A stretch of DNA of 35,695 nt from Christensenellaceae bacterium (lineage in GTDB: Bacteria; Bacillota; Clostridia; Christensenellales; DTU072): positions 1 to 35,695 of the forward strand of contig JAITQU010000099.1 of NCBI GenBank assembly GCA_031288735.1. The letters run 5' to 3'. Every line of letters begins with the position of its first letter. Within the stretch, counting starts at the first letter, position 1. The position numbers and the translations under genes were made by a program. Positions 9,017-35,695 of this stretch are shown here, one piece after another. The notes below the pieces were generated by a model, which made no database searches, was not told the origin of the DNA, and worked only from the letters and a program-made list of their open reading frames with translations.

Positions 9017-12000
9017 TTATAACATCGACTCTATGCTACAGTTAATTGCGGCGGTTTCAAAGCCATGAATTGCAATTGGAACACTTGCCTTAAACTCAAC
9101 ACCATTGACAGAAGCTAAGAATCTTGCATTATTTGCAGTGTAGGAATTTGTTGTGTTTCCATCAGCTTTAACCCAAGCTACTAGGTTTTGAGTTGCAGGA
9201 AATATTATAGGTGTAGAACTACCATAAGCAATTCCGTCAACTATAACTGTTATTTTATTTATATCAATTGTAGAACCGTTTGCTTCTAACACTCCAGCTA
9301 CACTAGCTAAGGTTAAACTTATACTTCGGTCGAAGATAATTTGAATTGTGTGTTTATCACCATTGAATAATTCAACATCGCTAATCTTTTGCATTGCATA
9401 TTGCACTAAAGCTGAAGCTTCGTAATCATAGAAAGTAAAGTATAACGAAGTACCATCATAATATAATCTTAGACTTCGTCCTGACAATAGTGTTCTTCCA
9501 CTGAATGCAAACGCATAATCAAAACTACCACTTTGAGTTCCAGAGAATGCAAGTTTTACAGTATCGTAGTTGCCAAAGTAAGCATTACTATAAGCATCCG
9601 ATAGTGTAATTGCTTTGTCAGAGGCTACAGAAATGGGAGTACCTATATTTTGGACATATTGATTATCTATTATGTAATCGTGCTGAGCAGTTGACTCTCC
9701 AAACAAGATGGACCGTAAAGTTATCTTTGTGTCTGATAATGAAATGGCTGCCCTGCGACCCCTACTATCAAATTGTGTATAATTATTCATGATATATCTA
9801 ATTTGACTTTGAGGAATCGTTGAATAATCATCAAAATAGAATTGAGAATCAATATTGCTTACTGAAACAATTATGCCATTATTTCGAATAATTAAGCTCA
9901 TCGAATCGTAAGAATCATCACTACTATTATTATTGAATATCAATTCAGCACTATATACGCTTGTAGTATTCCATGTGATTCCAGTAAGAGTTTTATAATA
10001 AGAACTTGTTGTACCTGTCATATTATACTTAATATGCAGTCTTGCCTCAGTCACATTGCCTGATGCATCATATCTGAGTGCAAGAGCAATACCATAATAT
10101 CCATTTGAAACACTAGCTGTTGAAGCGGCTGTGAAGTCTTCAAAATTATGATTATTGGTAGCAAATATGATATAACTCTCTAAATTATTATTGCGATACG
10201 CATTGGTATTAAATTTTGCACGTTCAATTGAGAAGTCAAGGGAAATTTTTGAGTATCGAGCTGATGGTTGAATCATAAAATTGTTTCTAATTTCAGCTGT
10301 TCCTGATATATAATCCGTGCCCGAAACTCTATTATAGCCATACAAATTAACAGGATTAGATGGTCCTACAACACTAATAGGTATAGCTAACGCACTACTA
10401 CTGATGGTAAATTCGCCAGGACTATTAGTAATAATGACGTTAAGTGCACAATACTCTTCAAGGCCTAAACTTGGATTTTTTATTGTAAGTTCAACAAAAT
10501 GTCTACCCAATGTCATTGTTCTACTAAGAATTTCACTTTGAGTTGTAAGCATTACTCCGTTTACCTTATATTCAAAGGTATAGTTTATCTTCCCTAAAGA
10601 GCGTTGCGTAGCAAACAGGGAGGAAATATTTATTTGTGCACTTTGTAATGCATCGCTAATGTAAATCACTTTTGTTGACGTGCCGGCTCTAGCAACTGTT
10701 CCATATATGTCCTTATACCCTTGCTGATAAATATAGAAATGTCTTACCCAAGCTTTGGCATTATTAACTACAAAGCCAGCATTTGATGATTCTATACTTA
10801 TATGTCCACTTACGGTTGGATTATATTGAGCAACTGATACAGCACTATTGTCATAAACATTTAGATAATTATTATCAATAAGAATATTGAGAATACTAGC
10901 CTCCTTATTGTAATAAATCTTAATATTATGAGTAAATCCGTCAAATATATCTCTAGCACTAGATATATTTGCAATTTGGCTCACCGTGCCACTTAAACTG
11001 TATACTACAAAAATACCACCCTCCTTGAACTCAATTGCAAGGTAGTCACTAGTAAATGAACCATTAACAAGTAAGATATATGAAAAATTAGCCGTATAGT
11101 TAGCAACAAGTCTTACTGTAGTGTCTATGACGTCGTACTCAAATTTTTTATTTAATGAGTTGTCTACTATACTTATATTTGTACTTCCACTTTCAGAGTT
11201 GATTTCACTTCCATAAACGTAATCGCTATTGTTGTCAAAGACAGGATGTGTTGAATAGTTAACCGTATTAATGTCATATCTTCTTATGGCTACAGTAAGC
11301 GAATTAGTATCAGAAAAGCTTGCTGGAAGAATAGCACTAGTTCCTGTAAGAGTAAGAGTGTATTCTGTGGCATTGGTATGCATAAATGTAAGACTCGTTG
11401 CTCCATCGTAGGTTTTCAATGCTTGTCGTAAGCTGTATTGAACCGTCAGCCACTCGTTTTGATTAGGTATCGATGGAATATTACCTGAAACAACACTAAG
11501 GTAATTGTTTGAATCAGTTTGATACAATTGAGATGTCACTGTTGCGCCAGATTGGTATTTTAATATAAATTCGAGGTCTGAAAGTGAAAAATCAGTATCC
11601 GTAGCTAGTAATTTATTAGTTTCGCTCATATCCATTGAAGTAAGGCTGTCGTGCACATGAACTGTAAATGGAGTGTATACAACATTATAATCTGGCTCCT
11701 CGCTAATAAACAAATCCACCTCTCTTACTGAAAGTCTTACTGATTGTTCTCCAACTTGGCTTTTATTATAACCATATACAACGTATGGGACCATATTAGT
11801 GTCTAAATATCTTGTGTTTTCAGTGTAGCCTGATTCTGCCCCTTGCGTCGTTGTAATAGTAGCTACATGGGAACTAATAATTTTTCCTACTGTATCGCCA
11901 CCAACCAAACCAGAATATGTAACTTGGGACATGCTAAAAATCCCACTAACAAGGGAAAGCGAACTTATTGTCACTACTCCAGTATTAGAATTTGTAGCAG

Positions 12001-15000
12001 CTATATATTTAACTCTATATAACCCTAACTCGGTGTTTTTCATGACGTGTATTGTTGTAGATATATTTAACCCAATCGTTAGAGTCGCTTTAGTAACAAC
12101 GAATGGAGTTGAGATAAATCCTAGATTGTAATTTTGCAATGCGGTTTGGGTGTTTGCATTTAGTGATGAATTTTCGGTTGGGAAGGACATATTTGCATAT
12201 CCTAGAGGAGTAACATCACTTACATGCTTATAGAAATCGACTTGCGTTTTTTCTTTGATTTCTGACAAGTGCCCCTGATCGTGTGAGTGCAGACCCACAA
12301 CCTCTAAATCATAGTCCTGTTGGTATATTGGAGTAGATCCATATACCATAGTAAATGAATTATCCACCGTATTTGGTTGAAGTTTAATATTAAGTGTTGA
12401 TTTTGTTATTGTCAAATAAAATGTATTTGATGCAAATGAATCATCAAAAACATAATTTTGCCAATTTGTTTGAGGCGGGTTGAAGCTAACAGGAAGATTG
12501 GATTGAACAGGCATTGAAAGAGTGTTAAGGTAAGCTCCATTTGTTTTTGCAACTAAATTAAATGGCACATTGTTGACAGCAAGATCATCAATTGTGTCTG
12601 TGTATTTAAATCCTGTGATAATAGGTGTCCAGGCAAATCCATAGACTCTCGATATTATATTATTGTTTGCAACTAGAGCTAAAGTAGCCTTATTGATTGT
12701 GATAATATCTTTTGACCAAAGCTCCGTTTTGTTTAATGGGCTGATTATGTTTACCTTGTAGTTTGAGCTCATTGAGAAAGTTGACCCATAATCGATTAAA
12801 AGGTAGTTTCCAGCATTAGGCTTTGCCGTAGTCCCAAATATGCTTTGAAGTGTCCATGTATTGTTAATATATAAATAACCATCAACATTATAGGAGTTTA
12901 CTCTAGGCACTAATGTGCTATCGCTATTAAGAAGTCCCGATGCTAAACCAGAGTTATCGCTAGAATAATATATGAGATCTAAATATGAGCTGTTTTTTAG
13001 CACTGTTTCACCATAATAATTTATTTTTGATGAACGTCCTTCCCAGTGGTAATAGATATTTCTAGGAGTTATAACAAAGTTCGCAGAGTTGAGGGGGGCT
13101 AATAGATAATTGTTGCTTGTTGTACCATACCCATCATCTGCTGTGATTGCATAGGTGTTTGCAGGATAAGGCCATGAATCTGATGTGCTAATTTTGAATT
13201 TAGCCGTAATACCATAATCGGAAATATTGCTAGTTATATCTTGACTTCCTTGAGCTCCTAAATATACGGTGTAGCTTATGGAATTATTGAGTGCTAAAGC
13301 TGTGCTTTCGCCATAGATTGAAGTGCCATTATTTAATATTATTGTTATTGTTGCAGGACTTATACGCACCTTGGGTGGCGCAGCTATATTGAAGTTTAAT
13401 ATAAACTCACGATTGAAATCATTTGGTGACATAGTAATGCCATAACCTAAAGCATTTGCATTAGTTGCATCCCCATCTATTATAAATACAATGTAACTAT
13501 CTAGATTTATGACAGCATTATATAGATTGTTTGCAATGGTTGAAATAGCATTCATGCTTTGTGTTAAGTTTAGCATGTCGGATGCATAACTAGCTGATGT
13601 GATAGCATCTAATAGCGAATTAAAATAGGATAAAATTATATCTTTGTAAGCACTTTCTTCTCTTGCCATGAATGGGGCAACCGTGCCACTAAAATACGTC
13701 TTGAATGCATCAACTCTAGACTTAAGTGAATTCAATCTAGCATTTAGTATTGTAGGATCGCTTGTTGGATCAATGTTGTCTATGTCACTCCTAATACCTG
13801 TTGCCTGTGTTACAGAATTTGAAAATGCTGTCTTTAGGGAAGTATCTGATGTGTTATTGTACAAGGTTCGAATTCTAGGGGCTGTAGCACCATCTATCAC
13901 AGACCTGAACACTACTTCATTACTGCTGAAAGAAAACTGAGAGCCATCGTAGGTTAGCACTAATCTGTTAGATGCAATCTCAACTTGGATATTTACCTTC
14001 AATATAGAGTAAATATAGTCACCATCAAGAGTAACGGTATGGTTAGTGTCGTAACATGCTAGCCCGATACTATAGTCACCCACTTCAGAGGTTGCTCTAT
14101 AAATGTCTGTAGTTCTTGTAAATGAAAAGACTAGAGAATTAAAGCTTAAGCTTGTAGATGTATCGGATATCTGACAGATTGCACTCGAAATTGATGGTTG
14201 CTTATTATCAAAATTTTTCTTTAAGTTCTCATCAAACAAACTTACCGAAATTTGGCGCCTATTAACTAACAGCTTATATGGGTTATCCCCCTCAGCAAAA
14301 AACTTAACAGAAAAATTGTTAGCATCTGATACCTGCGTAAATGGCAGGATTTCAATATCATAGGGAACTATATTTCCGTTTTCATCATACAGGACTGCCG
14401 TTGGTGTTAACTGAAACTCGGGGGCAAATGGGTTTGTTACTTTTAATTGAACATTAATCTCGTTTTTGACAGTTGATCCATCTAATATATCAAATTCACT
14501 GTTAGAATATAGAGCAAGCGGGGCAGAATCATAGGTGCGCTCTTGAATATATTTGCCAAGAGTTGAATTATATACTGCATTCCTAAGTTTAACCTTCAAT
14601 TCTCTAGGTTTAACGACAAAGTTTTCTCTAACAGTAAGATTAGTTGGAATAATATAATTAGGATTGCTAATACCAGCTACTGTGATATAGTAACTACCAG
14701 CGTTAGACACATTTAGAGTTGAGCCCTGTGCATAAATGATATTTATCACATCTCTGATAGGCCGACTTAAATCGTCTTTCATTTGATTGTTGTTTTGGTC
14801 ATACAATATTTCTATTGATTCAGTTTTGACGCTTAGAGCCATAATGAAACTAGAATTATAGTTGTAAACTAGATCGGTGCTGACAGGAGCACCATCAGCT
14901 GTTAATATGAAGTCACTTTCATTTAGACTCTTTGAATTAATTCTATAGTAATTTCTGCCTTGATATGCAAAATTAACATTATAGTTCGGATCACTTGCTA

Positions 15001-18000
15001 TCAAAGTTAACGCATATCGACCAGCCGCTGAGCTTGTAGCTTCAAAGGTGAATGCAATATTATCCTTGTCATATGCTTGATTTAGCTCACTATTCTGATC
15101 TAAAAGATCATATTCATTATAAGAAATTGATGGGAATTTACCATTATAGGTTCTTTCGATTGAATCTCCTGTAAAATAACCACCATTATTGGGATCTATA
15201 AAATGTAAAGTCAAATTTTTGGGGTTAATTGTGAGGAAAGCATTTCCTGCGAGCATTAACTTGTAGTTAGTATTTTGCGCTATCATGCTTGATATTCCTA
15301 TAAGATAAACACCAACGCCATCCCCCGCTATTCTTTCAGGACTGCCTAGTAGCGGTGCTTCGTTTACCATATCTTGTATATTATATTGAAGCTCAAAATT
15401 AGGATCAGGATCTCCATATGTTTTTTCTAAGGAAACTATCGAAACATTGATCTCTCTTTGCTCAATATCAAGATCACCTTTAAGCGATATAACATTATAG
15501 TTATTATAAACTAAGCTCTGCAAATCTTGTGATATTACTGCTAAAATATCATAAGTCCCACATATTTCAGTTAGAGGGTCAATTAAATTAGTGGTTCCCT
15601 TAGAATAATATCTAATTTCAACGACACCTAAGCCAATTGATTCATCATTATACGCAAACGCATCAGTATTAACAGCTGCTGAATCAGAATAAAATCCATA
15701 AATAATTGTTTGATTTCCGTAGCCATAAGTAGAAGATGCGTTAAACGCCTTAAGATATATGTCTTTCTTTATTATTTCTAGTAGGACATGATTATCTGAG
15801 GCGATTTCGGGATTGTAGGGAAGGAGCAATTGATAGTTTGCATTGCTAAGTGTGCCTAAGGTAATAATATGAAATCCAACATTGCGCGCGGATGCTAGCA
15901 TTGAATTTCTGATAGCCAATGCTCCTGCTAGCTGGTCAGCTCCAACAATGCCAGACATAGCGTCACCATCAATTTTACTAGTGGTGTATGCAATTGAATA
16001 TTCACCTGGTAGTAAACCGTACTCAACACTCATAGCAATCGGAGTTATCATTACTTGTCGTTTAGATACTGTGTATTTTGCTGCAGTCTCACCAACGTTT
16101 ACATAAGAAATTGAATAATCTTGGCTTACTATTCCTGATAGGAAAATTGAATACGTGCTAACAGGAGTGTCGCTCCTTACAGTTATGGACTCGCCTAGCT
16201 CATTATAAATACTAATACTAACATACTCGATTAAATTTAAACCATAATAGGAAGGTGTTCCATCAGTGTTTTGCAGTGCAAAATTTTCAGAGCTAAATGT
16301 ATCATCGTAAGCAAATGGTGTCTTTCTTACATCCAATAATCCGTTTGTATCTCCATAGAATTGTATCGTATAATCTTCTGTGTGATTTTCTCCATACACT
16401 TTGTTAATACTAGAAGCCAATACAAAAGCTTTCTTTGGAACTATTGTGACTATTGGGGAATTTGTTGAATTGGATACAAATGCATTATTATTTGCGTTTC
16501 CACTATACTTTAAAATAACATAGTAGGATCCAACACTACGCATATAGCTGTAGTCACCTGGATTGTTTGCGCTAATGTAGTTTGGATATTCCTCAACCCT
16601 TACATAGTCAATAATTAAATTGCCTTTGTTAGCATCAATTGCAGTGTCGAAATATTCAGTAGCATCTGTTGAATAATATCTATAATATTTAATCCTAGCT
16701 GTTGGCATTGCGTTAAGATCAAACAATCCGTTTTCATCCGAAAAATCACCATATGTGTAATTGGTAGTCGCACCACTAGATGCTCCTACATATTCGACAA
16801 CGACATTACGTCTATCATTCATAATAATGTCGTATTCGGCTCTAAATTCTATGTTGTTCCATACATAATATATATAAATTGTCTGTGCATTTGATTTGCC
16901 GCTAAACTCATTGTTGTTAAATTTAACTTTGTTGATATAGAAACCCGTAGATTGTGATTCTGCCTCCGTTAAATTCTTTTCCTCATAGTTGCCGTTATCA
17001 TATGTAAGAATAAGTGTTCCGCTAGTACCATCAACGTCCATTACGGTGAATGGCTCGCCCTCTAAGTATTGTGTTTTTGGCATAATTCCGATTGTAACGG
17101 CCATAAGTGTCTTTTCTATAGTGGTTATAGATATATCACAATATCTTGTTATGCCATTATAAGTGTATGCTACTTGATAGACACGTGTGCCCATTATGCT
17201 GTTTGATTTGTCATAGCCTTGTGGATTTGTCGCTGAAACGTATATGTTTTCATCGAGCACAGGAGCATCAGCATAAGTTGAGTCCGTGAATAATAGATGT
17301 AATTGCAATTCTGAAAGATCAATTGAAGCGTTCTCAATAACGGTTATGCTCGAGGGCGAAACTGAAATTGTATAAAGCTCTCTCGTTATCATGCGAACCA
17401 AAACTTGGAGGGTGCAACCGTTTGCATATTTAATTTCAATAATTTGGTCCACTCTTGAACCACTGTTGTAATTAATAACGGTTAGCTGCGAAATGAGTGT
17501 GTTTAGCGACATAGTTGTCTCAGTTCCATCATTGTAGCTTACACTTATTTCTGATGAGGATAATAAAACCCCAGGACTTCCAAAAATTTCGATTTTATCT
17601 AATTTGAACTCACTACCTTCTGTTATTTCAACTGTAGGTCTACTCGATGTCCAAACCATTGATATTGGGGCTTTTTCAACAATATATATTTTAAACGTTG
17701 CTGTATATGAATCAGGCAAAATGATTGACGGTCTGTAAGTGACTGTAACTAGTCTTGCATCCTTTTCATCTGGCACCTCATAGTTAGGATATGTTGTTGT
17801 GGATGTATTAGATAATGTGTATGCCGTGGCAGGCAATATGCTAGATGTGTTGTTTTTAAAATGAACGCTTACAATGAGTCCTGTTCTGTCAAACGTGTTT
17901 CCAAGTGCATAAACTGTTTTTGTCGGTAGCGCAGTTATTTCAATTCTAGCTATTGTATTTTCTACAACTGTTACTGTCGTAACTGCTTGCATATTGCCAT

Positions 18001-20257
18001 AGGTTATTTTTACTTCAACTGTCTCTCCAACAGTGGTATAAGCGTAGTCAAACTCTATCATGCTTTCTGTGAGTTGAATAATTCTCTCTGACCTGTTTTG
18101 ATATGTTGCAATTATATACTTATCAGTTAAATCGATCTTTGCGCCTACATAAACAGTCCCCATGTTAGCACCATCCTTGTATCGGATAGAAACTAAATCG
18201 TTAGTAACACTCACTCGAAAACTTAAACGATTTGAAACATTGCTTATGTTATAAACGTATATTATCTTTTCGGCATTGCTTGATGTAAATTTGCCATAAC
18301 TTTCTTCATTCGTCCAGTCGGCGCATTCGAAAATCCACTCGCCACCTGAAAAGTCAGAAATGTTATCTACTCCTCCATCATTATAGACAACAGAAAGAAT
18401 CAGCCCTTGCGTACTGAATTCATAATTGCTTTCGCTATATTGTGGATCATTGGCATTGTATACAAAATAGTTAATTCTAAACGGTACCTGAGCAATTGAA
18501 AATGCATCAACGTATCTTACTACTTTTATAGCAATTTCAACGTCAGTTTTTACCATTCCATCATATGTCAGTGTAAAAGTAGCTCTTTGTGCTGTCAGAT
18601 CACTCGTGCTAAAAGAATTTGGGTCTAAGGTGTGACCAGAAAGGTCAGCAAATAAGCCGCTACCATTATTAAATTCTATATATGCAAATATTTCATTTAG
18701 GCTGACCCATGAACTACCATACTCAATAGTTAAAAACTCAAGTGGTCTGTATATTACATTATTTGTATAGAATCCTGTTACGTTCTCAATCGAGAGTGCA
18801 ACGATATCAAATGTGTAGGTTGTCTCCTTAAAATATTGTTCATCCTGGTAAACAATTTGCCACACTGTTGCTCCCGAAACCTCATAAAGTAGAGGAGCAT
18901 CGGAGGTAGCATCCTTTTTCATTGTATAGGGAAGGAGTGCTGGAAGCGTTTGCGTCCCGTTGTTGAACTTTAAAACATAAGTCCACGAACTAAATGGTGA
19001 AAATTCAGTTTTTGAATATATCACCTGCTCATTTTCAGGATTTCCTTCATCATCAAATTCTGACGTCCTATAGATATCAATGCTTGATATAATTTTGTCT
19101 GCAACAGTTATAGTAAGTGTTACAGTCTTATTTAACAATTTCGTGCCAGAATAAAATTTAATTGTGACCTGCTGCTCGCCTACTAAATATTTATTGTATC
19201 CGTAAACATGCATAAGATATCCAGCGGCTGGCGGATTATATGTCTCACCATCACAGTAGACATTTGTAGCAGTGGCAGTTATGTATTTAATCTCTTTAAT
19301 ATCAGTAGGGGAATCAGTGTATACAACTGCAAAAACTAACCCTCTTAAATTCAATGGTGTCTCTACTAGCTGGTTGCTAGTAGGTGCTGTAACAACATTG
19401 CAGTCTACAATGTTTTCCTCAACTATTATAACGTTAAAGTGCGCTACAATACTTCCCCCATCCTTATTTGTTCCATAAATTAACGTTACATCAGACTCTT
19501 GTGTAATAGTTGACGAATCCCATATTGCCTCTAGTCCTGCTAGTGATGTCATTTCTACATCTACTGCATAATTATTGTCATATTGTAGTAGCATTCTGCC
19601 ACCAACTAGATTTAATGTAACTGAATCCTTAAAATATGTTGTTTTATCTGGAAACCTAGAAATGATCATGCTTAAAAGTGATTTCGGTACAACTTGTATG
19701 TCTATTTGCTTTGTATATGCTACGCCACTATATACATATGTAATTGTCAGTGTCTGTTGTCCTATTCTTGTACGTACATAACCACTAACCATATCGATAG
19801 TTACTGGTACTTCAACTGAATAATTCAATTCACACTCAAGATTTAGAGATAAGCCTCTAGGATTAAAATTTTGCTCTTCAACATACTGCCATTTAAAACT
19901 ATCATTTCTAATAATCGTCATTTCTATGAGCGGTGGTGCTTCTACTGTTACTATGACGTTTGTTGTTTTCCCTTCGAAATTTACTTGTAATACTTGCTCT
20001 CCTACTAAAAACTTGTTAAATGCACTTATCATTCCTTCTGTAATTGCTACTAACTCTTCTTGCCCGCCTTCGTATATAACTTTAATATGAGCGTTTGCTA
20101 AATCTAGCTCCTGTCCCCAAAGATAGTAAGTTACTGGACTTGAATATATCTCGATTCTGCTAATGGCTGTTTCCTCTGTATCTTTATTGCATCCAACAAA
20201 CACGAATATTGTTAGGATGAGAATTAAGCATGCCAGAAAGGTTAGTTTTTTGTTCAT
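9017..20257 (-). CDS. Giant (3746 aa) surface lipoprotein: Ig-like repeats, YG-type MBG-like repeats, C-terminal LamG/jelly-roll-like modules
   Basis: A single uninterrupted 11,241-nt ORF, with GGAGA (20268-20264) 6 nt upstream of the ATG. N-terminus MNKKLTFLACLILILTIFVFVGC|NKD has lipobox FVGC. Residues ~30-1150 are repeated 80-100 aa Ig-like modules, e.g. ISRIEIYSSPVTYYLWGQELDLANAHIKVIYEGGQEELVAITEGMISAFN. Residues ~1270-2700 are MBG-like repeats (KVYGENHTEDY, SVEYGLLPGEY, EKTYGDPDPNFELQY, SRVYGFAWTP, TMVYGSTPIY). A helical low-complexity insert sits around aa 2130-2250 (nt ~13500-13870). The last ~750 aa (nt ~9017-11250) hold three jelly-roll-like modules (GFTHNIKIYYNKEASILNILIDN; LFNGDKHTIQIIFDRS). 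Domain boundaries are approximate. Confidence 0.9.
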   Translation of the reverse strand: MNKKLTFLACLILILTIFVFVGCNKDTEETAISRIEIYSSPVTYYLWGQELDLANAHIKVIYEGGQEELVAITEGMISAFNKFLVGEQVLQVNFEGKTTNVIVTVEAPPLIEMTIIRNDSFKWQYVEEQNFNPRGLSLNLECELNYSVEVPVTIDMVSGYVRTRIGQQTLTITYVYSGVAYTKQIDIQVVPKSLLSMIISRFPDKTTYFKDSVTLNLVGGRMLLQYDNNYAVDVEMTSLAGLEAIWDSSTITQESDVTLIYGTNKDGGSIVAHFNVIIVEENIVDCNVVTAPTSNQLVETPLNLRGLVFAVVYTDSPTDIKEIKYITATATNVYCDGETYNPPAAGYLMHVYGYNKYLVGEQQVTIKFYSGTKLLNKTVTLTITVADKIISSIDIYRTSEFDDEGNPENEQVIYSKTEFSPFSSWTYVLKFNNGTQTLPALLPYTMKKDATSDAPLLYEVSGATVWQIVYQDEQYFKETTYTFDIVALSIENVTGFYTNNVIYRPLEFLTIEYGSSWVSLNEIFAYIEFNNGSGLFADLSGHTLDPNSFSTSDLTAQRATFTLTYDGMVKTDVEIAIKVVRYVDAFSIAQVPFRINYFVYNANDPQYSESNYEFSTQGLILSVVYNDGGVDNISDFSGGEWIFECADWTNEESYGKFTSSNAEKIIYVYNISNVSNRLSFRVSVTNDLVSIRYKDGANMGTVYVGAKIDLTDKYIIATYQNRSERIIQLTESMIEFDYAYTTVGETVEVKITYGNMQAVTTVTVVENTIARIEITALPTKTVYALGNTFDRTGLIVSVHFKNNTSSILPATAYTLSNTSTTTYPNYEVPDEKDARLVTVTYRPSIILPDSYTATFKIYIVEKAPISMVWTSSRPTVEITEGSEFKLDKIEIFGSPGVLLSSSEISVSYNDGTETTMSLNTLISQLTVINYNSGSRVDQIIEIKYANGCTLQVLVRMITRELYTISVSPSSITVIENASIDLSELQLHLLFTDSTYADAPVLDENIYVSATNPQGYDKSNSIMGTRVYQVAYTYNGITRYCDISITTIEKTLMAVTIGIMPKTQYLEGEPFTVMDVDGTSGTLILTYDNGNYEEKNLTEAESQSTGFYINKVKFNNNEFSGKSNAQTIYIYYVWNNIEFRAEYDIIMNDRRNVVVEYVGASSGATTNYTYGDFSDENGLFDLNAMPTARIKYYRYYSTDATEYFDTAIDANKGNLIIDYVRVEEYPNYISANNPGDYSYMRSVGSYYVILKYSGNANNNAFVSNSTNSPIVTIVPKKAFVLASSINKVYGENHTEDYTIQFYGDTNGLLDVRKTPFAYDDTFSSENFALQNTDGTPSYYGLNLIEYVSISIYNELGESITVRSDTPVSTYSIFLSGIVSQDYSISYVNVGETAAKYTVSKRQVMITPIAMSVEYGLLPGEYSIAYTTSKIDGDAMSGIVGADQLAGALAIRNSMLASARNVGFHIITLGTLSNANYQLLLPYNPEIASDNHVLLEIIKKDIYLKAFNASSTYGYGNQTIIYGFYSDSAAVNTDAFAYNDESIGLGVVEIRYYSKGTTNLIDPLTEICGTYDILAVISQDLQSLVYNNYNVISLKGDLDIEQREINVSIVSLEKTYGDPDPNFELQYNIQDMVNEAPLLGSPERIAGDGVGVYLIGISSMIAQNTNYKLMLAGNAFLTINPKNLTLHFIDPNNGGYFTGDSIERTYNGKFPSISYNEYDLLDQNSELNQAYDKDNIAFTFEATSSAAGRYALTLIASDPNYNVNFAYQGRNYYRINSKSLNESDFILTADGAPVSTDLVYNYNSSFIMALSVKTESIEILYDQNNNQMKDDLSRPIRDVINIIYAQGSTLNVSNAGSYYITVAGISNPNYIIPTNLTVRENFVVKPRELKVKLRNAVYNSTLGKYIQERTYDSAPLALYSNSEFDILDGSTVKNEINVQLKVTNPFAPEFQLTPTAVLYDENGNIVPYDIEILPFTQVSDANNFSVKFFAEGDNPYKLLVNRRQISVSLFDENLKKNFDNKQPSISSAICQISDTSTSLSFNSLVFSFTRTTDIYRATSEVGDYSIGLACYDTNHTVTLDGDYIYSILKVNIQVEIASNRLVLTYDGSQFSFSSNEVVFRSVIDGATAPRIRTLYNNTSDTSLKTAFSNSVTQATGIRSDIDNIDPTSDPTILNARLNSLKSRVDAFKTYFSGTVAPFMAREESAYKDIILSYFNSLLDAITSASYASDMLNLTQSMNAISTIANNLYNAVINLDSYIVFIIDGDATNANALGYGITMSPNDFNREFILNFNIAAPPKVRISPATITIILNNGTSIYGESTALALNNSISYTVYLGAQGSQDITSNISDYGITAKFKISTSDSWPYPANTYAITADDGYGTTSNNYLLAPLNSANFVITPRNIYYHWEGRSSKINYYGETVLKNSSYLDLIYYSSDNSGLASGLLNSDSTLVPRVNSYNVDGYLYINNTWTLQSIFGTTAKPNAGNYLLIDYGSTFSMSSNYKVNIISPLNKTELWSKDIITINKATLALVANNNIISRVYGFAWTPIITGFKYTDTIDDLAVNNVPFNLVAKTNGAYLNTLSMPVQSNLPVSFNPPQTNWQNYVFDDSFASNTFYLTITKSTLNIKLQPNTVDNSFTMVYGSTPIYQQDYDLEVVGLHSHDQGHLSEIKEKTQVDFYKHVSDVTPLGYANMSFPTENSSLNANTQTALQNYNLGFISTPFVVTKATLTIGLNISTTIHVMKNTELGLYRVKYIAATNSNTGVVTISSLSLVSGIFSMSQVTYSGLVGGDTVGKIISSHVATITTTQGAESGYTENTRYLDTNMVPYVVYGYNKSQVGEQSVRLSVREVDLFISEEPDYNVVYTPFTVHVHDSLTSMDMSETNKLLATDTDFSLSDLEFILKYQSGATVTSQLYQTDSNNYLSVVSGNIPSIPNQNEWLTVQYSLRQALKTYDGATSLTFMHTNATEYTLTLTGTSAILPASFSDTNSLTVAIRRYDINTVNYSTHPVFDNNSDYVYGSEINSESGSTNISIVDNSLNKKFEYDVIDTTVRLVANYTANFSYILLVNGSFTSDYLAIEFKEGGIFVVYSLSGTVSQIANISSARDIFDGFTHNIKIYYNKEASILNILIDNNYLNVYDNSAVSVAQYNPTVSGHISIESSNAGFVVNNAKAWVRHFYIYQQGYKDIYGTVARAGTSTKVIYISDALQSAQINISSLFATQRSLGKINYTFEYKVNGVMLTTQSEILSRTMTLGRHFVELTIKNPSLGLEEYCALNVIITNSPGEFTISSSALAIPISVVGPSNPVNLYGYNRVSGTDYISGTAEIRNNFMIQPSARYSKISLDFSIERAKFNTNAYRNNNLESYIIFATNNHNFEDFTAASTASVSNGYYGIALALRYDASGNVTEARLHIKYNMTGTTSSYYKTLTGITWNTTSVYSAELIFNNNSSDDSYDSMSLIIRNNGIIVSVSNIDSQFYFDDYSTIPQSQIRYIMNNYTQFDSRGRRAAISLSDTKITLRSILFGESTAQHDYIIDNQYVQNIGTPISVASDKAITLSDAYSNAYFGNYDTVKLAFSGTQSGSFDYAFAFSGRTLLSGRSLRLYYDGTSLYFTFYDYEASALVQYAMQKISDVELFNGDKHTIQIIFDRSISLTLASVAGVLEANGSTIDINKITVIVDGIAYGSSTPIIFPATQNLVAWVKADGNTTNSYTANNARFLASVNGVEFKASVPIAIHGFETAAINCSIESML

Positions 20258-21490: not shown

Positions 21491-21709
21491 ACAGTAACTT
21501 TGAGTATTATAAAGCAACAAAGGTTGCAATTCTTATGAGATATACGAGGGAAATTTATGTTCTTTGTCGGTCTGAAAATTTTCAATTTACTGCGACAATT
21601 CATTTTACATTCTACACATCAAATTTCAAACAGTGAATTCTTAAATCAAATACTATCGAAAATATTGTGATATACTATAAATGCAGGAAATTCAGTGGAG
21701 GCTGTTAAA

Positions 21710-22573
21710 ATGACAAAACAAAAATATTATGCGGTAAAAAAAGGACGAGAGACTGGAATATTTACTGACTGGAATTGCTGTCAAAAATCAACAACTGGAT
21801 TTCCTGGTGCCGTTTTTAAGTCATTTGAAAGCAAGAAAGCAGCAGAGACATTTTTAAGTGATGTCGACATTGCAGTATCTACTGATATAGCTCCACTATT
21901 ACAACTTGATTATTATGCGGTAAAGAAAGGACGCGAGACTGGGATATTCACTGACTGGAGTAGCTGTCAAGAAGCAATAACTGGATTTCCTGGTGCTATT
22001 TTTAAATCATTTAAAAACAAGGAAGCGGCAGAGGCGTTTTTAAGTGATGCGGACATTGTAGTATCTGATGATATAGCTACACGATTACAACAGGGTCGAA
22101 CTGTAGCTTTCGTTGATGGAAGTTTTGATGGTTTAAAAGGATATTATAGCTATGGAATAGTAATCATAAATAACAACATGGAAGAAACTGAGTTGTGTGG
22201 AAAAAGTAATAACGCTAAATTTTTAGCACATAACAATGTTGCTGGAGAGATTTTTGGGGTAGTTGGTGCAATGGATTGGGCACTACAAAATAATTGCAAT
22301 AAGTTGAGTATATTCCATGACTTAGAAGGGTTAGCAAGGTGGGCAGATGGGAGCTGGAAAACTAACAATGACCTAACAAAGTTTTATCAGAGTTTTATAG
22401 AGAAGTATAAAGGAGTGATTGATCTTGAATTTGTAAAAGTCAAGGGTCACTCAAACAACAAATATAATGACCGTGCAGATCAGCTTGCAAGAGAAGCTAT
22501 TTTTGAAAATAAAACTTGTATGGATGCAAGTGGCAATGGTGTGTATATTATAGATAATATAAAAGAACAATGA
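21710..22573 (+). CDS. RNase H1-type ribonuclease with two tandem N-terminal hybrid-binding (Cauli_VI-like) domains
   Basis: The track ORF starts at GTG 21695. ATG 21710 with GGAGG (21697-21701) 8 nt upstream is the likelier start. Two copies of YYAVKKGRETGIFTDW..CQ....GFPGA.FKSF..K..AE.FLSD are followed by an RNase H fold with the catalytic pattern AFVDGS ... AGEIFG ... IFHDLEG ... VKGHSNNKYNDRADQLA. Confidence 0.85.
   Translation: MTKQKYYAVKKGRETGIFTDWNCCQKSTTGFPGAVFKSFESKKAAETFLSDVDIAVSTDIAPLLQLDYYAVKKGRETGIFTDWSSCQEAITGFPGAIFKSFKNKEAAEAFLSDADIVVSDDIATRLQQGRTVAFVDGSFDGLKGYYSYGIVIINNNMEETELCGKSNNAKFLAHNNVAGEIFGVVGAMDWALQNNCNKLSIFHDLEGLARWADGSWKTNNDLTKFYQSFIEKYKGVIDLEFVKVKGHSNNKYNDRADQLAREAIFENKTCMDASGNGVYIIDNIKEQ
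21725..22096 (+). repeat. In-frame tandem duplication, 2 x 186 nt (62 aa), encoding the two hybrid-binding domains
   Basis: Copy 1 spans 21725-21910 and copy 2 spans 21911-22096. Both start tattatgcggtaaa.aaaggacg.gagactgg.atatt.actgactgg and stay alignable without gaps to ...gatatagct.cac.attacaac. Identity is high by eye; I did not compute it. Confidence 0.85.
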
Positions 22574-29323: not shown

Positions 29324-29923
29324 TCAATCGCCTTTAATTAAGTCATCAACATTTTTGAATTTCTGTAAGCCTTGAACTCTAGTACTAAACGCTCGTATTA
29401 TTGACATTAAGTCATCTAGCATTTCAGACTGTGGACTTAATGTTTCAGCATTTGCAGCTATCAATTCACAACCGTATATCTTACATATACTTTCTACTAA
29501 CTCAAATCCAAAACGCGCTAATCTATCCTTGTGTGCTACAATTAGCGTTCCAATGTCACCGTTTATTATTCCTTGAACAATTTCTAGAAACCTTGGCCTG
29601 ATTAAATTTAGTCCACTGCCAATTTCTTGTATAATGTTGATAGTATAGCCTTTTGCTAATGCAAATGCCTCCATAACATCACATTGTGTTTTAAGGTCTT
29701 CTTTTTGAGCTTGATTTGAAACTCTACAATATATCACTGTTTTCTTAGGTTTAATGAGATCTGGTTTGAAATTTTGTGCTTTTAATAAATCGGACTCTGA
29801 GTAATATCGTTGATTGCCTACACTCCTAAATGATGGATGGAGTATGTTTTCCTTATCCCACCTCCGGATTGTTGCGGTAGTCACTCCTATTTTATCTGCA
29901 AATTCTTTTATTCGGTAGTTCAT
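29324..29923 (-). CDS. tnpA: IS607-family serine recombinase TnpA (MerR-like HTH + resolvase catalytic domain), no adjacent tnpB
   Basis: N-terminal HTH: YRIKEFADKIGVTTATIRRWDKENILHPSFRSVGNQRYYSESDL. Resolvase core: VIYCRVSNQAQKEDLKTQ...IQEIGSGLN..RPRFLEI...GDIGTLIVAHKDRLARFGFELVE. Only 45 nt and 91 nt of flanking spacer separate it from the neighbouring genes. Confidence 0.85.
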   Translation of the reverse strand: MNYRIKEFADKIGVTTATIRRWDKENILHPSFRSVGNQRYYSESDLLKAQNFKPDLIKPKKTVIYCRVSNQAQKEDLKTQCDVMEAFALAKGYTINIIQEIGSGLNLIRPRFLEIVQGIINGDIGTLIVAHKDRLARFGFELVESICKIYGCELIAANAETLSPQSEMLDDLMSIIRAFSTRVQGLQKFKNVDDLIKGD

Positions 29924-31562: not shown

Positions 31563-34500
31563 TTATCGTTGTCTTATCATGTAGGTAATAGAATTAGCCC
31601 CATCTACCACTCTATAGTTTTGTGAAACTGTTGCTCTGTAATCGCCCATAACCGATGGTAATTCGTTACCTACTAGTCTTACAAACGCACCATTTACATA
31701 TCTTTCATAGTAGATATCATCTGCTGCTATCGTTATTTGTGAATATCCTGTTGAATAAGTAGCCAATACACGTTTGGGAATACCATCATCTACTAGGTTT
31801 CTATACCCAGAGAAAAGCACAGAGTTGATCTGTCTAGGTCTAACTCTTAGTAAACCACTCTGCTCATCAATGGAATAATAGGAATTCTGATTATCACCAT
31901 CAACTATAGCGTATGATAATTTATAACCACCCAGAACATCACCATCATATCTGACACTTTCGCCAGCCTCTCTTATAATCCTTATCTCGATTTGATCCCT
32001 TACACCATTATTAGTAACTAATGAAGCTTCTCCTAAAGTAAATGTAAATAACGGGTCGTTATTCCCATATATTTTTTCAGCGTCATGAATAACTACTGTA
32101 ATTGGTTTCTGTAGGACCTTAGCCTGATATCCCTCAACTTCACCACCAACATAGTAATCGTTTTCCTCTACGACTATTTTCATGGCATATGTACCAGGGA
32201 AAATTGGGTAATCTCCAGTAGTTTCGTTTACAACAGTCCAAACACCATCGATTGAGAGATATAATAATTGGAAATTTGGTAATATGAAATGCAAAAGCTC
32301 AGGCTGCTGATAGAGTGTAACCTTTGGAATACTACGAGTGCCATAATATGAAATTGCACCACTGATCGGAGTATCGTTTCCAGTAACAATACTAAGCTTT
32401 CTATATGTAGTAATGTTAGTTTCTACAAACACATTCTCGATGCAGATCCTTACATTCTGTGTTACATACGCATTAGTAGCCGATGCCTCGAATGGGTTAA
32501 TGTTATAGTTTTGAATAAACACTGTTCCGTTAGTCATATCGAGATAATCAAAAGTGCTATCGTTAAAGGTCCGTTTTAAAACACCACCCTCAAGACTTAA
32601 TTCTGCGTGAACTGGATATCTAACAACTGTTGGTAGTTTTGTTATTTCAATACTAGTCAGTGTGCGGGTTATAAATTCAATTGGTAGTACTGGCGCATCA
32701 TTTAAACTAACAAAACCAGGATAGTGTATTGCTAAAGCTACTCTGTTAGGATATTCTGGATCAATTGGATTCGCACCTGGTATATGAACATTGGGATCAT
32801 ATTCTACATACCCTCTAAGAAGCGGTATTTGCGTCTTGATCGAGGTTGAATCTCCTGACGATAGTTTATAATAAACATCTAAATATAATCCGTATAAGTT
32901 TAGCTCCTTTCCTTTATCTACTGTTAAAAAGTGTTCGCCCGATCCATTATTTAATACGCTTGAATCGAATATTATATCGGCTATTTCGCTAGCACTTACT
33001 ACTGTTATAGTAAAATTGAAAGAAATTAGCGATATCCCATTATTGAAATACATCGTAATCTTTTTTTCACCTACACTAGAGAGACTAGTGCTGGCACCAT
33101 TTAAATCAAAGATAGAATATGACCACTCAGGAGAACTAAAATCAACAACATCCTCTGGATTTCTTTGGTCGTTAAATTTTTTACTAACACGCATTCCAGC
33201 AAATGAAAGGCTTGTGTCCTTGCCTAATAGATATATTGACTTAGGTGCAGTAACGATTTCAAACGAAGACGCCCTGCGCCCTACAATGTTAATGCTATAC
33301 GATACTGAAATGCCCTTATGACGTAATACTATAGATTGCAGTCCTAGACGAGTAAAATCAGCAGAATAGATATCAGCTTTTGATATAATCGAATCTACAC
33401 TACCGCCTGCTGTTGTGGCTCTAAAGGTCATTCCGCTTGCAGGGAAATGATCGAAATTAATATAATTATTGCTAACAGGAACACCAATGATATAAACACT
33501 AGTAGGTAACAAATCCTCTACGTAAATTCTGTATTGTGCGTATAAACCTTGAGTGTCATTTAAAAGATAAACTCTAACAGAATAGTCCTCTTCGCTTGAT
33601 TCGCCAACTACAAATTCACCGCTAGGATGATTATACTCACTATCCCCAAAATAGTATTTTTTAATAAATCGTGTATCATCAGATAAAGGAACGGAAACGT
33701 TATCGCCATTATTGTAGTAGATCATGACAGATCCACCATCATAGGTAGCAGTAGTTAATGAATCTAGTCTTGTATATTGTTCAAAATAGTTTTTTATAGG
33801 ATCTCTTAGAATGGCTATGTTTGTCGGGGCTACTTGAACCACTGGCAAAACAATAGATTTTTCAGTATTTTCATAACTAAAAACTAATGTCTGGGAATGT
33901 CCCGTTGAAACCTCTGGATTTTGAGACACATTACTCTCACTAATAGTTAATGCACTATTGCCAGAAAGCATGTCGATTGTAAGTCCGTCCCATAGCAATG
34001 GATCAGCAATTGTTCTAGCGTTTATACCAGACGTTAAATATTCACCATTATTAAATAGAACATTGTATGATACTAGGTTGTAGGTTATTGTCTCTCCATA
34101 GGTAAATATTCGATTTGTAAGATATTCAGTGCCATGTAAAATCAATTCCTTAGGAGTTCTAGGGATGATGTTGATTATAAGTGGCACCTCCCATTGAACG
34201 TTTCCAAACTTTAACCAAACCGTGTGATTTCCTAGCACATTTGTATCTATAGCACCTGTATTATTGCTTTCTGTGCGTTTTTGCATTTCACCATCATTTA
34301 GTTTTACAATTCGCTTTGATCCATTGTTATATGTCAATTCTACTGTACCAGTTGTCCAATCTACATTATCTCCCTGTACCACATTTTCAACAGATGTAGG
34401 CTGTATAAAAACAACACCATTTATAGTTATTCCTGTAGTTATAGGTCTACCATCTAAAAGATAACCATTTTCATCGAGATAAAAGAACGTCATTGTTGTA

Positions 34501-35372
34501 CAAGTAGGCTCATCTACCTTAACAGTAAATGAGCTAGTAAATTCCTCAGTATAATCTGTAACTAAGAATCCTTTATATGTCACTACTACTTGTGCTAAAT
34601 AATTTTTTGTTGAAAAATCATATTTGATATCAAAATCATCCTTTGTTTCTTCAGTATAGGGAATTGTAAGGGTGGAATCATCATCATATCTTAATATTAT
34701 AGAAATACCAAGAGGATCTAATTGATCGAACACAAAATACGATTTCTTATTAGCGGCTATTACCTGTGTTTGAGATGGAACTAATGTGTTTGATAGTATA
34801 TAAACTGAAAACTCAGTAAAAAAATCATCATATTTAACCTTAAGTGTGTGTGTCCCTGGATATAGATCAGTGGAATATCCAATTATCATGTCATCTACAT
34901 TAATTTTTAAATCTGAACTTGCTCCGTTTAGAAAATTTAAACGAATAAAGTAATCACTCATTGATAATTCAGTTCCACGAAGGACCGTTATGCTGTATTC
35001 GCCTGCTTCTAAATCACCCGTTTTAAAAAGTTCTATTCCCGTTATGGGATTTGAAACAACTCTATACACGACAGTAAATGTTTTATCTAGATACTTAATC
35101 TCAAACGATCGCTCGCCTATTTCTGTGGAATTAAACCCAGTGATCATTTCAGCTGTTATTGGAACAAGTCTACTAGACCCATCAGAATAGGTTATTTCGA
35201 ATTCTGCACCAGTAGTATTAATAGGTGCTCTTTGAAAATATTCATTGTTAGGAAATGATGAAATTTTAATATCTACTATAGTTAAAAGCGGTTGTGGATC
35301 GGAACAAGCTGTTAATAAAACACAGGCTGTTAATATTATTATTAATATGTAAACGGGGATTAATCGCTTCAT
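31563..35372 (-). CDS. Large surface lipoprotein (~1270 aa): Ig-like repeats plus a C-terminal MBG-like repeat
   Basis: The track ORF starts at ATG 35408 (MYKYLSLLRTGD...). The internal ATG 35372 has AAGGA (35385..35381) 8 nt upstream and gives a classic signal, MKRLIPVYILIIILTACVLLTAC|SDPQ. Ig-like modules include LLTIVDIKISSFPNNEYFQRAPINTTGAEFEITYSDGSSRLVPITAEMITGFN. The MBG-like repeat is KPITVVIHDAEKIYGNNDPLFTFTL...GGYKLSY. Confidence 0.85.
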   Translation of the reverse strand: MKRLIPVYILIIILTACVLLTACSDPQPLLTIVDIKISSFPNNEYFQRAPINTTGAEFEITYSDGSSRLVPITAEMITGFNSTEIGERSFEIKYLDKTFTVVYRVVSNPITGIELFKTGDLEAGEYSITVLRGTELSMSDYFIRLNFLNGASSDLKINVDDMIIGYSTDLYPGTHTLKVKYDDFFTEFSVYILSNTLVPSQTQVIAANKKSYFVFDQLDPLGISIILRYDDDSTLTIPYTEETKDDFDIKYDFSTKNYLAQVVVTYKGFLVTDYTEEFTSSFTVKVDEPTCTTMTFFYLDENGYLLDGRPITTGITINGVVFIQPTSVENVVQGDNVDWTTGTVELTYNNGSKRIVKLNDGEMQKRTESNNTGAIDTNVLGNHTVWLKFGNVQWEVPLIINIIPRTPKELILHGTEYLTNRIFTYGETITYNLVSYNVLFNNGEYLTSGINARTIADPLLWDGLTIDMLSGNSALTISESNVSQNPEVSTGHSQTLVFSYENTEKSIVLPVVQVAPTNIAILRDPIKNYFEQYTRLDSLTTATYDGGSVMIYYNNGDNVSVPLSDDTRFIKKYYFGDSEYNHPSGEFVVGESSEEDYSVRVYLLNDTQGLYAQYRIYVEDLLPTSVYIIGVPVSNNYINFDHFPASGMTFRATTAGGSVDSIISKADIYSADFTRLGLQSIVLRHKGISVSYSINIVGRRASSFEIVTAPKSIYLLGKDTSLSFAGMRVSKKFNDQRNPEDVVDFSSPEWSYSIFDLNGASTSLSSVGEKKITMYFNNGISLISFNFTITVVSASEIADIIFDSSVLNNGSGEHFLTVDKGKELNLYGLYLDVYYKLSSGDSTSIKTQIPLLRGYVEYDPNVHIPGANPIDPEYPNRVALAIHYPGFVSLNDAPVLPIEFITRTLTSIEITKLPTVVRYPVHAELSLEGGVLKRTFNDSTFDYLDMTNGTVFIQNYNINPFEASATNAYVTQNVRICIENVFVETNITTYRKLSIVTGNDTPISGAISYYGTRSIPKVTLYQQPELLHFILPNFQLLYLSIDGVWTVVNETTGDYPIFPGTYAMKIVVEENDYYVGGEVEGYQAKVLQKPITVVIHDAEKIYGNNDPLFTFTLGEASLVTNNGVRDQIEIRIIREAGESVRYDGDVLGGYKLSYAIVDGDNQNSYYSIDEQSGLLRVRPRQINSVLFSGYRNLVDDGIPKRVLATYSTGYSQITIAADDIYYERYVNGAFVRLVGNELPSVMGDYRATVSQNYRVVDGANSITYMIRQR

Positions 35373-35416
35373 ATCACCAGTCCTTAATAAACTTAAGTAT
35401 TTGTACATTCTTTAAT

Positions 35417-35445
35417 ATTATATACTATTTTGTTATAAAATTCAA
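35417..35445 (-). promoter_or_regulatory. Sigma-70-type promoter of the 1281-aa lipoprotein gene (TTGAAT-17 nt-TATAAT)
   Basis: On the minus strand, -35 TTGAAT is at 35445..35440, the spacer is 17 nt, and -10 TATAAT is at 35422..35417. The predicted start is ~35410. ATG 35408 would therefore be essentially leaderless, whereas ATG 35372 would have a ~38-nt leader with an RBS. Confidence 0.55.
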
Positions 35446-35484
35446 TATGATTTTTCAAGATAATCTAAAGCGACTACTATAAAT

Positions 35485-35650
35485 GTGACTTACTCCCGCC
35501 GCCTAACGCCTACGGCGTTTGAGTCGGGGCTTCTTGGGAACTCACCTCACGGCAGGATGTTTAACCCCGCTATCCACCGTGCGTCCCACGGTTCGATGTA
35601 ATGCGCTATGATGTGAGTATTCGAAGCCCTTCTAGCCGAATGTTGCGTCT
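35485..35650 (-). ncRNA. Candidate TnpB guide-RNA (omega/reRNA) scaffold: GC-rich structured tail overlapping and following the tnpB 3' end
   Basis: 66/110 G+C over 35491-35600, against 12/60 in a normal spacer (27541-27600). Helices: 35577-35581 ccgtg with 35587-35591 cacgg; 35525-35529 cgggg with 35565-35569 ccccg; 35505-35510 aacgcc with 35514-35519 ggcgtt. A closing pairing joins 35598-35607 with 35505-35513 and includes a G.U pair only when read on the minus strand. There is an abrupt switch to AT-rich sequence at ~35484. Position and strand match the known TnpB omega-RNA layout. The class was not confirmed by any model. Confidence 0.4.
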
Positions 35651-35695
35651 TAGTTGATGTCTCTATGATGATGTGCACCACAACTTTCGCATGTC
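35606..35695 (-). pseudogene. tnpB: tnpB 3' end (Zn-ribbon + RuvC-III motif) with a 1-nt frameshift; 5' part lies beyond the right edge
   Basis: The minus-strand frame from 35694 reads TCESCGAHHHRDIN, then TAA (35652..35650). Two nt later, in the next frame, it continues RRNIRLEGLRILTS*, with TAG at 35608..35606. Together this matches the TnpB C-terminal consensus C..CG.hH.RDiNAa.NI...EGLr, with 8 nt where 9 are needed between DIN and NI. Confidence 0.7.

Follow-up and report, generated by a model that had tools for sequence, protein, structure and literature searches.

The minus strand at the right edge of contig JAITQU010000099.1, from a Christensenellaceae bacterium, carries an apparent tnpB 3' end, followed by a G+C-rich tail that stops a short distance upstream of the promoter of a very large lipoprotein gene. 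The question raised by this locus is whether the tail belongs to a dying insertion sequence (IS), to an element that can still move, or to an RNA-guided regulator of the lipoprotein gene. A preliminary description, made from the sequence alone, had left the choice between a dying IS and a TldR-like repressor open. The window analysed here is the entire contig of 35,695 bp, which terminates at position 35695, and therefore nothing can be read to the right of it. Within this window the shared frame break of tnpB and the damage to two helices of the guide RNA favour the dying IS, and the contig edge probably represents an ordinary IS200/IS605 transposon of the ISAam1/ISYmu1 type, of which a relic right end lies beside the lipoprotein gene.

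Translation of the minus strand from the right edge gave TCESCGAHHHRDIN (35653–35694) followed by TAA (35652–35650), and the frame one base out gave RRNIRLEGLRILTS (35606–35650) closed by TAG (35608–35606). The first of these frames contained the second CxxC of a zinc ribbon (CESC), the HRDIN motif and the RuvC-III Asp, and the second corresponded to the ..(A)RNI..EG..* of intact relatives, so that the C-terminal zinc ribbon and the RuvC-III motif of TnpB, (D/H)RDxNAAxNI..EG., could both be recognized; the first CxxC of the ribbon was visible solely in two sister open reading frames (ORFs), P0002 and P0009, which are described below. The frame break falls in the 2 nt (35652–35651) that separate the N codon from the first R codon, and appeared as a 1-nt gap in the alignment to the right-end RNA (reRNA) of ISAam1. 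Restoration of one base yielded RRNIRLEGL, with the spacing from N to NI and from NI to the stop then as in intact relatives, the C-termini used for this comparison being that of the TnpB of Mammaliicoccus sciuri plasmid pK8D55P-fosD (L002) and others ending ...DRDINAAINIKNEGCRILGIA*. A simple 1-nt deletion within RuvC-III had been proposed earlier; the break is indeed 1 nt net, but the NAA codons of this copy were changed by substitution as well, and more than one base is altered.

A 29-aa peptide, made by inserting one residue at the break, matched the C-terminal 19 positions of Pfam PF07282 (Cas12f1-like_TNB) with an E-value of 2.1e-5 and a score of 25.0 bits against a cut-off of 26.3. The same peptide matched 1959 plasmid records by tblastn at 60–76% identity and, among the matches listed, most lay under TnpB-annotated genes. 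The two reading frames, the Pfam match and the tblastn results thus bore out the frameshifted tnpB 3' end that had been suspected. An uninterrupted ORF of ∼350–400 aa with the D-E-D RuvC triad was not present, as a premature TAA follows RDIN; the third Asp of the triad was found, and the positions of the first Asp and of the Glu fall beyond the contig end. These motifs identify the stretch as the zinc-ribbon/RuvC-III terminus of tnpB, its frame broken by a net 1 nt in the NAA codons.

The DNA downstream of this remnant was rich in G+C as previously described, 66 of 109 nt being G or C over 35485–35593 and 59.5% over 35485–35605, compared with 35% in the rest of the contig. Its motif order was that found after the stops of intact tnpB genes (L002–L004), namely AACCGT and, 7 nt further, ACGG, then G(G/A)TAGC, a variable hairpin, CCnAAGAA, a second hairpin and TCA(A/C), with AACCGT starting 12 nt past the restored stop in the window and ∼10–30 nt past the stop in the relatives. 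A search with a pattern based on these motifs yielded 51 loci on viral contigs, and a narrower pattern yielded 98 loci in Bacillota genomes, most of the loci being placed directly 3' of a TnpB C-terminus. Two covariance models were built from such members, the window being left out of both: R1 from 29 viral-contig members and R2 from 71 members. On the window, R1 identified 35502–35596 of the minus strand with 25.1 bits (E = 1.1e-4; second-best match 10.5 bits), and R2 scored 35.0 bits (E = 1.6e-7) as its sole match with E below 0.6, the second-best reaching 9.6 bits (E = 0.69); this segment is referred to as the scaffold core. The R1 score of the window was, however, below that of every true member (each at least 50 bits; 50–83 bits for members outside the training set).

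Table S1 of PMC11224200 lists the reRNA scaffolds with which ISAam1 and ISYmu1 have been used in experiments, and the published 182-nt ISAam1 scaffold could be globally aligned to the window from end to end, with 121 identical positions in 194 columns. This end-to-end alignment and the shared ...GTCAC end therefore place the right end of the element at 35485 and the equivalent of the whole omega RNA (or reRNA) scaffold at 35667–35485. The scaffold thus lies on the tnpB strand, overlaps the tnpB 3' end and extends to the transposon right end, in agreement with the earlier proposal.

The family fold comprises a helix P1, then P2 enclosing P3, and then P4. In two family alignments the partners were paired in 95.5% and 92.7% of the cells, compared with ∼35–51% when the partners were slid (39–51% in the smaller alignment alone), and the covariation scores were 0.50 and 0.45 for the smaller and the larger alignment, against 0.17 and 0.13 in shuffles. 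The checks by covariance model and by covariation among homologues, which had been suggested beforehand, hence returned a significant, sole match and strong family covariation. Folding energy, by contrast, had to be rejected as evidence for an RNA gene: the z-score of 35485–35596 was −0.14, with 86 of 200 shuffles folding at least as well, and the evidence is therefore that of homology and family covariation. The nested helices described earlier are accordingly not thermodynamically unusual.

Searching the window against Rfam gave no match to an omega-RNA family, and as Rfam 15 likewise matched no family in bona fide members of the class, this absence is uninformative; a c-di-AMP riboswitch match (10.4 bits, E = 8.4) was rejected as chance. 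Exact DNA copies of the scaffold, sought with one 23-mer and several 20-mers, were found neither in genome contigs nor in viral contigs, the single match of a metagenome exact-match scan lay inside an unrelated gene and was taken as chance, and blastn of 35440–35695 against plasmids and phages gave no match. Homology and covariation together indicate that the G+C-rich tail is a TnpB guide-RNA scaffold of the ISAam1/ISYmu1 class.

Examination of the individual helices revealed that they are unequally preserved. P1 (35577–35591, minus strand) was intact, with CCGTG (35591–35587) facing CACGG (35581–35577) in five of five pairs; in the family it is paired in 99.7–100% of the cells, and its fifth pair covaries. 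P2, which encloses P3 (35533–35569, minus strand), was damaged: its 5' strand reads CGGGG (35569–35565) and not CTTGG, the 3' strand CCAAG (35537–35533) is unchanged, and three of five pairs are left. Among 105 unique members, 100 had all five P2 pairs and the remaining five had four, and variants were compensated, as in L004 (CTTAG/CTAAG) and ISAam1 (CTCAG/CTGAG). Compared with ISAam1, P3 (∼35560–35541) lacks 2 nt in the 3' strand, and about three of its pairs are left. An intact P2 with P3, be it CUUGG/CCAAG or a compensated variant, was thus absent from the window, and in the centroid fold of the window P2 and P3 were replaced by a GCGGGGU/AUCCUGC hairpin; six members folded into the family structure. 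The sister copy P0009 appears from its protein sequence to retain GCTTGG at P2.

P4, the subterminal right-end hairpin (35493–35530, minus strand), was paired manually by comparison with L113. In the window GCCCCGAC (35530–35523) pairs with GGCGGCGGGAG (35503–35493) in about seven pairs with one A–G mismatch and one bulged C, and a perfect 6-bp hairpin, AACGCC-GTA-GGCGTT (35519–35505), lies inside it. The counterpart in L113 reads ...GCCCCCGCTTCAAACGCCGTTAGGCGTTAAGCGGCGGGAG, one pair being compensated (U–A to C–G) between L113 and the window; L004 showed the same architecture, and all eight P4 pairs covary in the family. P1 and P4 are thus both present in the window. Beyond P4 the element ends at 35485 with the terminus ...GTCAC (35485–35489, minus strand), which is shared by 98 genome loci (with a few single-base variants) and by the ISAam1 scaffold and is followed by unrelated flanking DNA. 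The terminus in the window, GGGAGTAAGTCAC, was identical to the end of Alicyclobacillus (A. mengziensis) copies, so that the right end combines a subterminal hairpin with a conserved terminal sequence. P4 and the terminus are presumably the parts that the Y1 transposase TnpA would recognize, and P2 and P3 would matter to TnpB alone.

In relatives, a Y1 tnpA gene of ∼135 codons lies upstream of a tnpB gene of ∼370 codons, and the left-end junctions start with TTTAAC, which agrees with the TTTAA motif of ISAam1 (PMC11224200). The presence of Y1 TnpA with TnpB and the TTTAAC junctions in relatives therefore identify an IS200/IS605 element of the IS605 type. No Y1 transposase was found among the 13 ORFs of at least 150 aa in the window (12 of which had Pfam matches), and neither a Y1 tnpA nor an intact tnpB occurs within the 35.7 kb. 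A solo IS607-type tnpA at 29324–29923 was considered as a partner of the tnpB remnant and rejected, because relatives of the class carry Y1 TnpA. This minus-strand gene encodes a 199-aa serine recombinase with a MerR-type helix-turn-helix and a resolvase domain, and sits between an aminotransferase and an FGGY kinase gene with no adjoining tnpB. It was also present in the Logan contig L001 but, by tblastn, nowhere in the syntenic locus L155, and thus has the look of a small insertion of its own.

Variants of the class in other bacteria were also encountered. Multi-copy mini-elements devoid of tnpB were found in Tissierella (L064, L071, L086, L093 and L152) and in a metagenome-assembled genome (MAG) of Thermaerobacter marianensis (L074, L092, L096, L116 and L138), in which a left end consisting of TTTAAC... 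and a hairpin directly joins the omega-RNA scaffold, which runs to a GTCAC right end; the copies were 88–99.7% identical to one another and resemble miniature inverted-repeat transposable elements (MITEs) that carry a complete guide-RNA gene. On the M. sciuri plasmid (L002, 2110–2264 and 2422–2576), a second unit made of the last ∼100 nt of tnpB and a near-identical second scaffold directly followed the full tnpB and its omega RNA, constituting a tandem fragment of about omega-RNA length. In drafts and MAGs the scaffold often started ∼30 nt from a contig end (many of L057–L154, e.g. L073, L084, L108, L117, L130 and L134), and assemblies therefore seem to break inside this multi-copy element, as in the contig studied here.

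Five tiny ORFs annotated as 'transposase' (P0002, P0003, P0009, P0010 and P0015; 20–77 aa), located on five contigs of one Christensenellaceae MAG, the genome to which the records MDR3185394.1, MDR3185465.1, MDR3185660.1, MDR3185875.1 and MDR3186349.1 belong, shared the motif ...TCE(S/N)CGAHH(H/Q)R(D/N)I(N/T) with the window copy. P0002 and P0003 end in ...TCESCGAHHHRDIN and P0010 in ...TCENCGAHHHRDIN, the stop that follows RDIN being common to all three, whereas P0009 and P0015 read onward in the same shifted frame as the window, P0009 continuing ...SALHRTVGRT, which corresponds to the AACCGTGGGACGCACG of the window as protein. Elsewhere the five ORFs diverge from each other by many substitutions; a frame break common to such diverged copies is therefore older than their divergence and not a sequencing error. 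A longer protein with this C-terminus was detected neither in a word search of 5.8 billion proteins nor in a HMMER scan of 1.84 billion proteins. A chimera of 26 residues of M. sciuri TnpB and the 29 window-derived residues served as a query in the protein search, and its matches were judged solely on the window-derived part; one candidate, P0033, was rejected as belonging to an unrelated class.

These observations can be accommodated in a simple course of decay: the tnpB tail has an old frame break that makes the ORF stop at RDIN, and P2 and P3, the helices that only TnpB would need, are damaged. The terminus, the hairpin P4 next to it and P1 are retained, which would fit an element that outlived its TnpB, and the window copy has probably lost its function. 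Several points weigh against a relic. The contig holds 90 nt (30 codons) of the ORF, the remaining extent of this tnpB copy lying upstream and out of sight, and the decay of the sister copies is judged from annotated ORF lengths alone. The scaffold still has 60% G+C in a genome of 35% G+C, with P1, P4 and the terminus well kept, which could mean recent activity or selection, for instance through mobilization by TnpA or through a TnpB acting in trans. Likewise, a low model score can reflect divergence of the lineage instead of decay, and predicted folds of protein-bound RNAs are unreliable.

A non-autonomous but live element would explain some of these features, namely one whose TnpB is dead in cis, which is mobilized by a Y1 TnpA encoded elsewhere, and whose omega RNA is perhaps loaded by a TnpB in trans and so protects the copy. 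Diverged copies with one and the same frame break occur on at least six contigs, which fits a spread after TnpB inactivation, P4 (with its pair compensated relative to L113) and GTCAC are intact, the G+C content of the scaffold is still high, the assembly stops within the element, a common fate of multi-copy repeats, and the family does give rise to elements without tnpB, 319 bp long in Tissierella and ∼235 bp in the Thermaerobacter MAG. We nevertheless regard such an element as unlikely. P2, with three of five pairs, and P3, with its 2-nt deletion, are damaged though conserved in all members, the sister copies differ by many substitutions and none looks recent, the 35.7 kb supply neither of the two proteins, and the protein searches that were run returned no intact close relative of this TnpB. 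The relic right end thus remains the reading that we prefer.

In an intact element of this kind, an RNA that spans the 3' part of tnpB together with the right end and 16–20 nt of the flank binds TnpB, and the guided TnpB cuts the emptied donor site (TTTAA plus flank) after excision, whereupon recombination restores the element. To our knowledge, every IS200/IS605 element takes as its guide the DNA that happens to adjoin its right end. If the family is taken as a model, the flank that would serve as the 16–20-nt guide in the window is ATTTATAGTAGTCGCTTTAG (35465–35484, minus strand), and its target would read TTTAA followed by ATTTATAGTAGTCGCT. The promoter of the lipoprotein gene, which is not part of the element, occupies 35417–35445 of the minus strand, with TTGAAT at 35445–35440, a 17-nt spacer and TATAAT at 35422–35417 (10 of 12 positions matching). 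Element and lipoprotein gene point in the same direction, and 39 nt separate the element from the −35 box downstream of it, close to the ∼40 nt estimated before. The tail had further been thought to be aimed at this promoter, a view that was not supported: the guide flank stops 19 nt short of the −35 box, and on its 5' side it is adjoined by ...GTCAC and not by TTTAA. No second match to the guide flank beyond chance was found within the window.

The lipoprotein itself had been given as 1281 aa, which is the longest ORF only and begins 12 codons upstream (35372–35408, minus strand) of the likely start, an ATG at 35372 (MKRLIP..LTAC); the corrected length is 1269 aa, and the protein database has the 1269-aa form. 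Two syntenic loci on Joint Genome Institute contigs from another metagenome, L155 and L156, encode lipoprotein orthologues ∼40% identical to that of the window, followed by genes for an aminotransferase, an FGGY kinase, two class II aldolases and a major facilitator superfamily transporter. In both, TTGAAT-17-TATAAT was present upstream of the lipoprotein orthologue, and neither a tnpB nor an omega RNA (as a match to R2) was found upstream of the gene. Since L155 and L156 keep the promoter in the absence of the element, it must be native to the gene, and the element is a lineage-specific insertion that landed 39 nt ahead of the −35 box. As no terminator was found between the element and the lipoprotein gene, read-through transcription into the latter is possible, and any effect on the gene would be passive, by read-through or by displacement of upstream DNA, and not RNA-guided.

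The suggestion that a domesticated, nuclease-impaired TnpB of the TldR kind uses the guide RNA to control the adjacent giant lipoprotein gene is highly improbable on this evidence. TldRs are characterized by a conserved association with a host gene, by a guide to a site on promoter elements that is flanked by a target-adjacent motif (TAM), and by an otherwise intact fold, and C-terminal truncation is one route by which they arise (PMC10705468). Like a TldR, the window copy is TnpB-derived, has lost a C-terminal RuvC segment, the truncation removing the helix after the RuvC-III Asp, and has a guide RNA encoded beside the gene; moreover, it is oriented like the lipoprotein gene and close to its −35 box. 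Unlike in TldRs, there is no conserved gene association, since the orthologous loci keep the promoter without the element, and the guide, being the immediate flank, misses the promoter elements and lacks a TAM. The paralogues scattered on five other contigs are ORFs of 20–77 aa, which would speak against an intact fold, and the RNA scaffold with its two damaged helices is also unfavourable. Of further matches to the guide, which the preliminary description had proposed to seek especially at promoters of lipoprotein genes, the window contained none beyond chance. With respect to gene association and a TAM-flanked guide on the promoter, the two points on which it can be tested, the TldR-like reading is refuted.

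Hardly more credible is the broader notion that the RDIN-frameshifted tnpB family as such is kept for a host function, through its truncated product or through its omega RNA with a TnpB in trans, the window copy then exerting RNA-guided or read-through control over the lipoprotein gene. Finally, a sequencing or assembly error in a tnpB that is really intact is highly improbable even though only 43 nt separate the break from the contig end, the part in which assemblies are least reliable, given that the same stop or shifted frame occurs in five independently assembled, diverged copies, that more than one base of the NAA motif is altered and that the break site is not a homopolymer run.

The relic can be placed most closely by comparison with ISAam1, whose TnpB is described, in the account of Xiang et al. 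(2023) given in PMC11224200, as a 369-aa protein of an IS200/IS605 element of Alicyclobacillus macrosporangiidus with the TAM 5'-TTTAA. In ISAam1 as in the window, the RNA starts at the codons of tnpB RuvC-III (D-R-D-x-N; D-R-D-V-N in ISAam1), P1 (AACCGTGGGAC.CACGG), P2, P3 and P4 follow, then ...GGGAG.A.GTCAC, and the spacing of the TnpB C-terminus up to the stop is equal. The window differs in the frame break within the NAA codons, in a P2 5' strand (CGGGG) that is uncompensated, in contrast to the compensated CTCAG/CTGAG of ISAam1, and in the 2-nt deletion in P3 and the extra inner hairpin in P4. This comparison covers the RNA scaffold and the C-terminal codons, everything upstream of the last 30 codons being off the contig. 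ISYmu1 and the unnamed IS605-type elements of Bacillota and phages (L002–L154) share with the window the P1-P2(P3)-P4 architecture, the motifs AACCG., GG.TAGCTTGG and CCCAAGAA, and a hairpin followed by TCA(A/C). Unlike the window, they end in GTTCAA or GTGTCAA, the GTCAC subclass excepted, and their R1 scores are 50–107 bits compared with 25 for the window. With IS200/IS605 derivatives of the MITE type or of the type of palindrome-associated transposable elements (PATEs), the element has in common that it is multi-copy, lacks a working tnpB and has kept its right end; unlike their clean fusions of left end and omega RNA, it retains a recognizable tnpB 3' remnant, and its left end is out of view.

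Among the other genes of the window, two encode very large Big_3/MBG-domain proteins, one of 3746 aa (9017–20257, minus strand) and the other the 1269-aa lipoprotein (31563–35372, minus strand), which has an LTAC lipobox. The identity of only ∼40% between orthologues beside a syntenic sugar-utilization cluster suggests that the latter is a fast-evolving surface protein. A look-up with the aminotransferase returned one 9.5-kb Logan contig, which stops inside the lipoprotein gene. The gene at 21695–22573 on the plus strand encodes 292 aa, in which an RNase H domain is preceded by two RNase H1 N-terminal (Cauli_VI) domains.

As a degenerate copy of an already known and experimentally characterized kind of element, the locus has little significance beyond annotation, in which it should be entered as a tnpB pseudogene fragment with an omega-RNA remnant and not as a regulator of the lipoprotein gene. 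The class to which it belongs is of wider interest, as its 149 loci comprised 105 distinct core sequences with strong covariation in P1, P3 and P4; no Rfam family covers it, so that standard RNA annotation overlooks remnants of this kind. The ISAam1/ISYmu1 omega-RNA class is thus a candidate for a curated RNA family. The way in which this copy decays, P2 and P3 eroding and the terminal hairpin persisting, would fit a guide-RNA gene whose different parts are constrained by different proteins.

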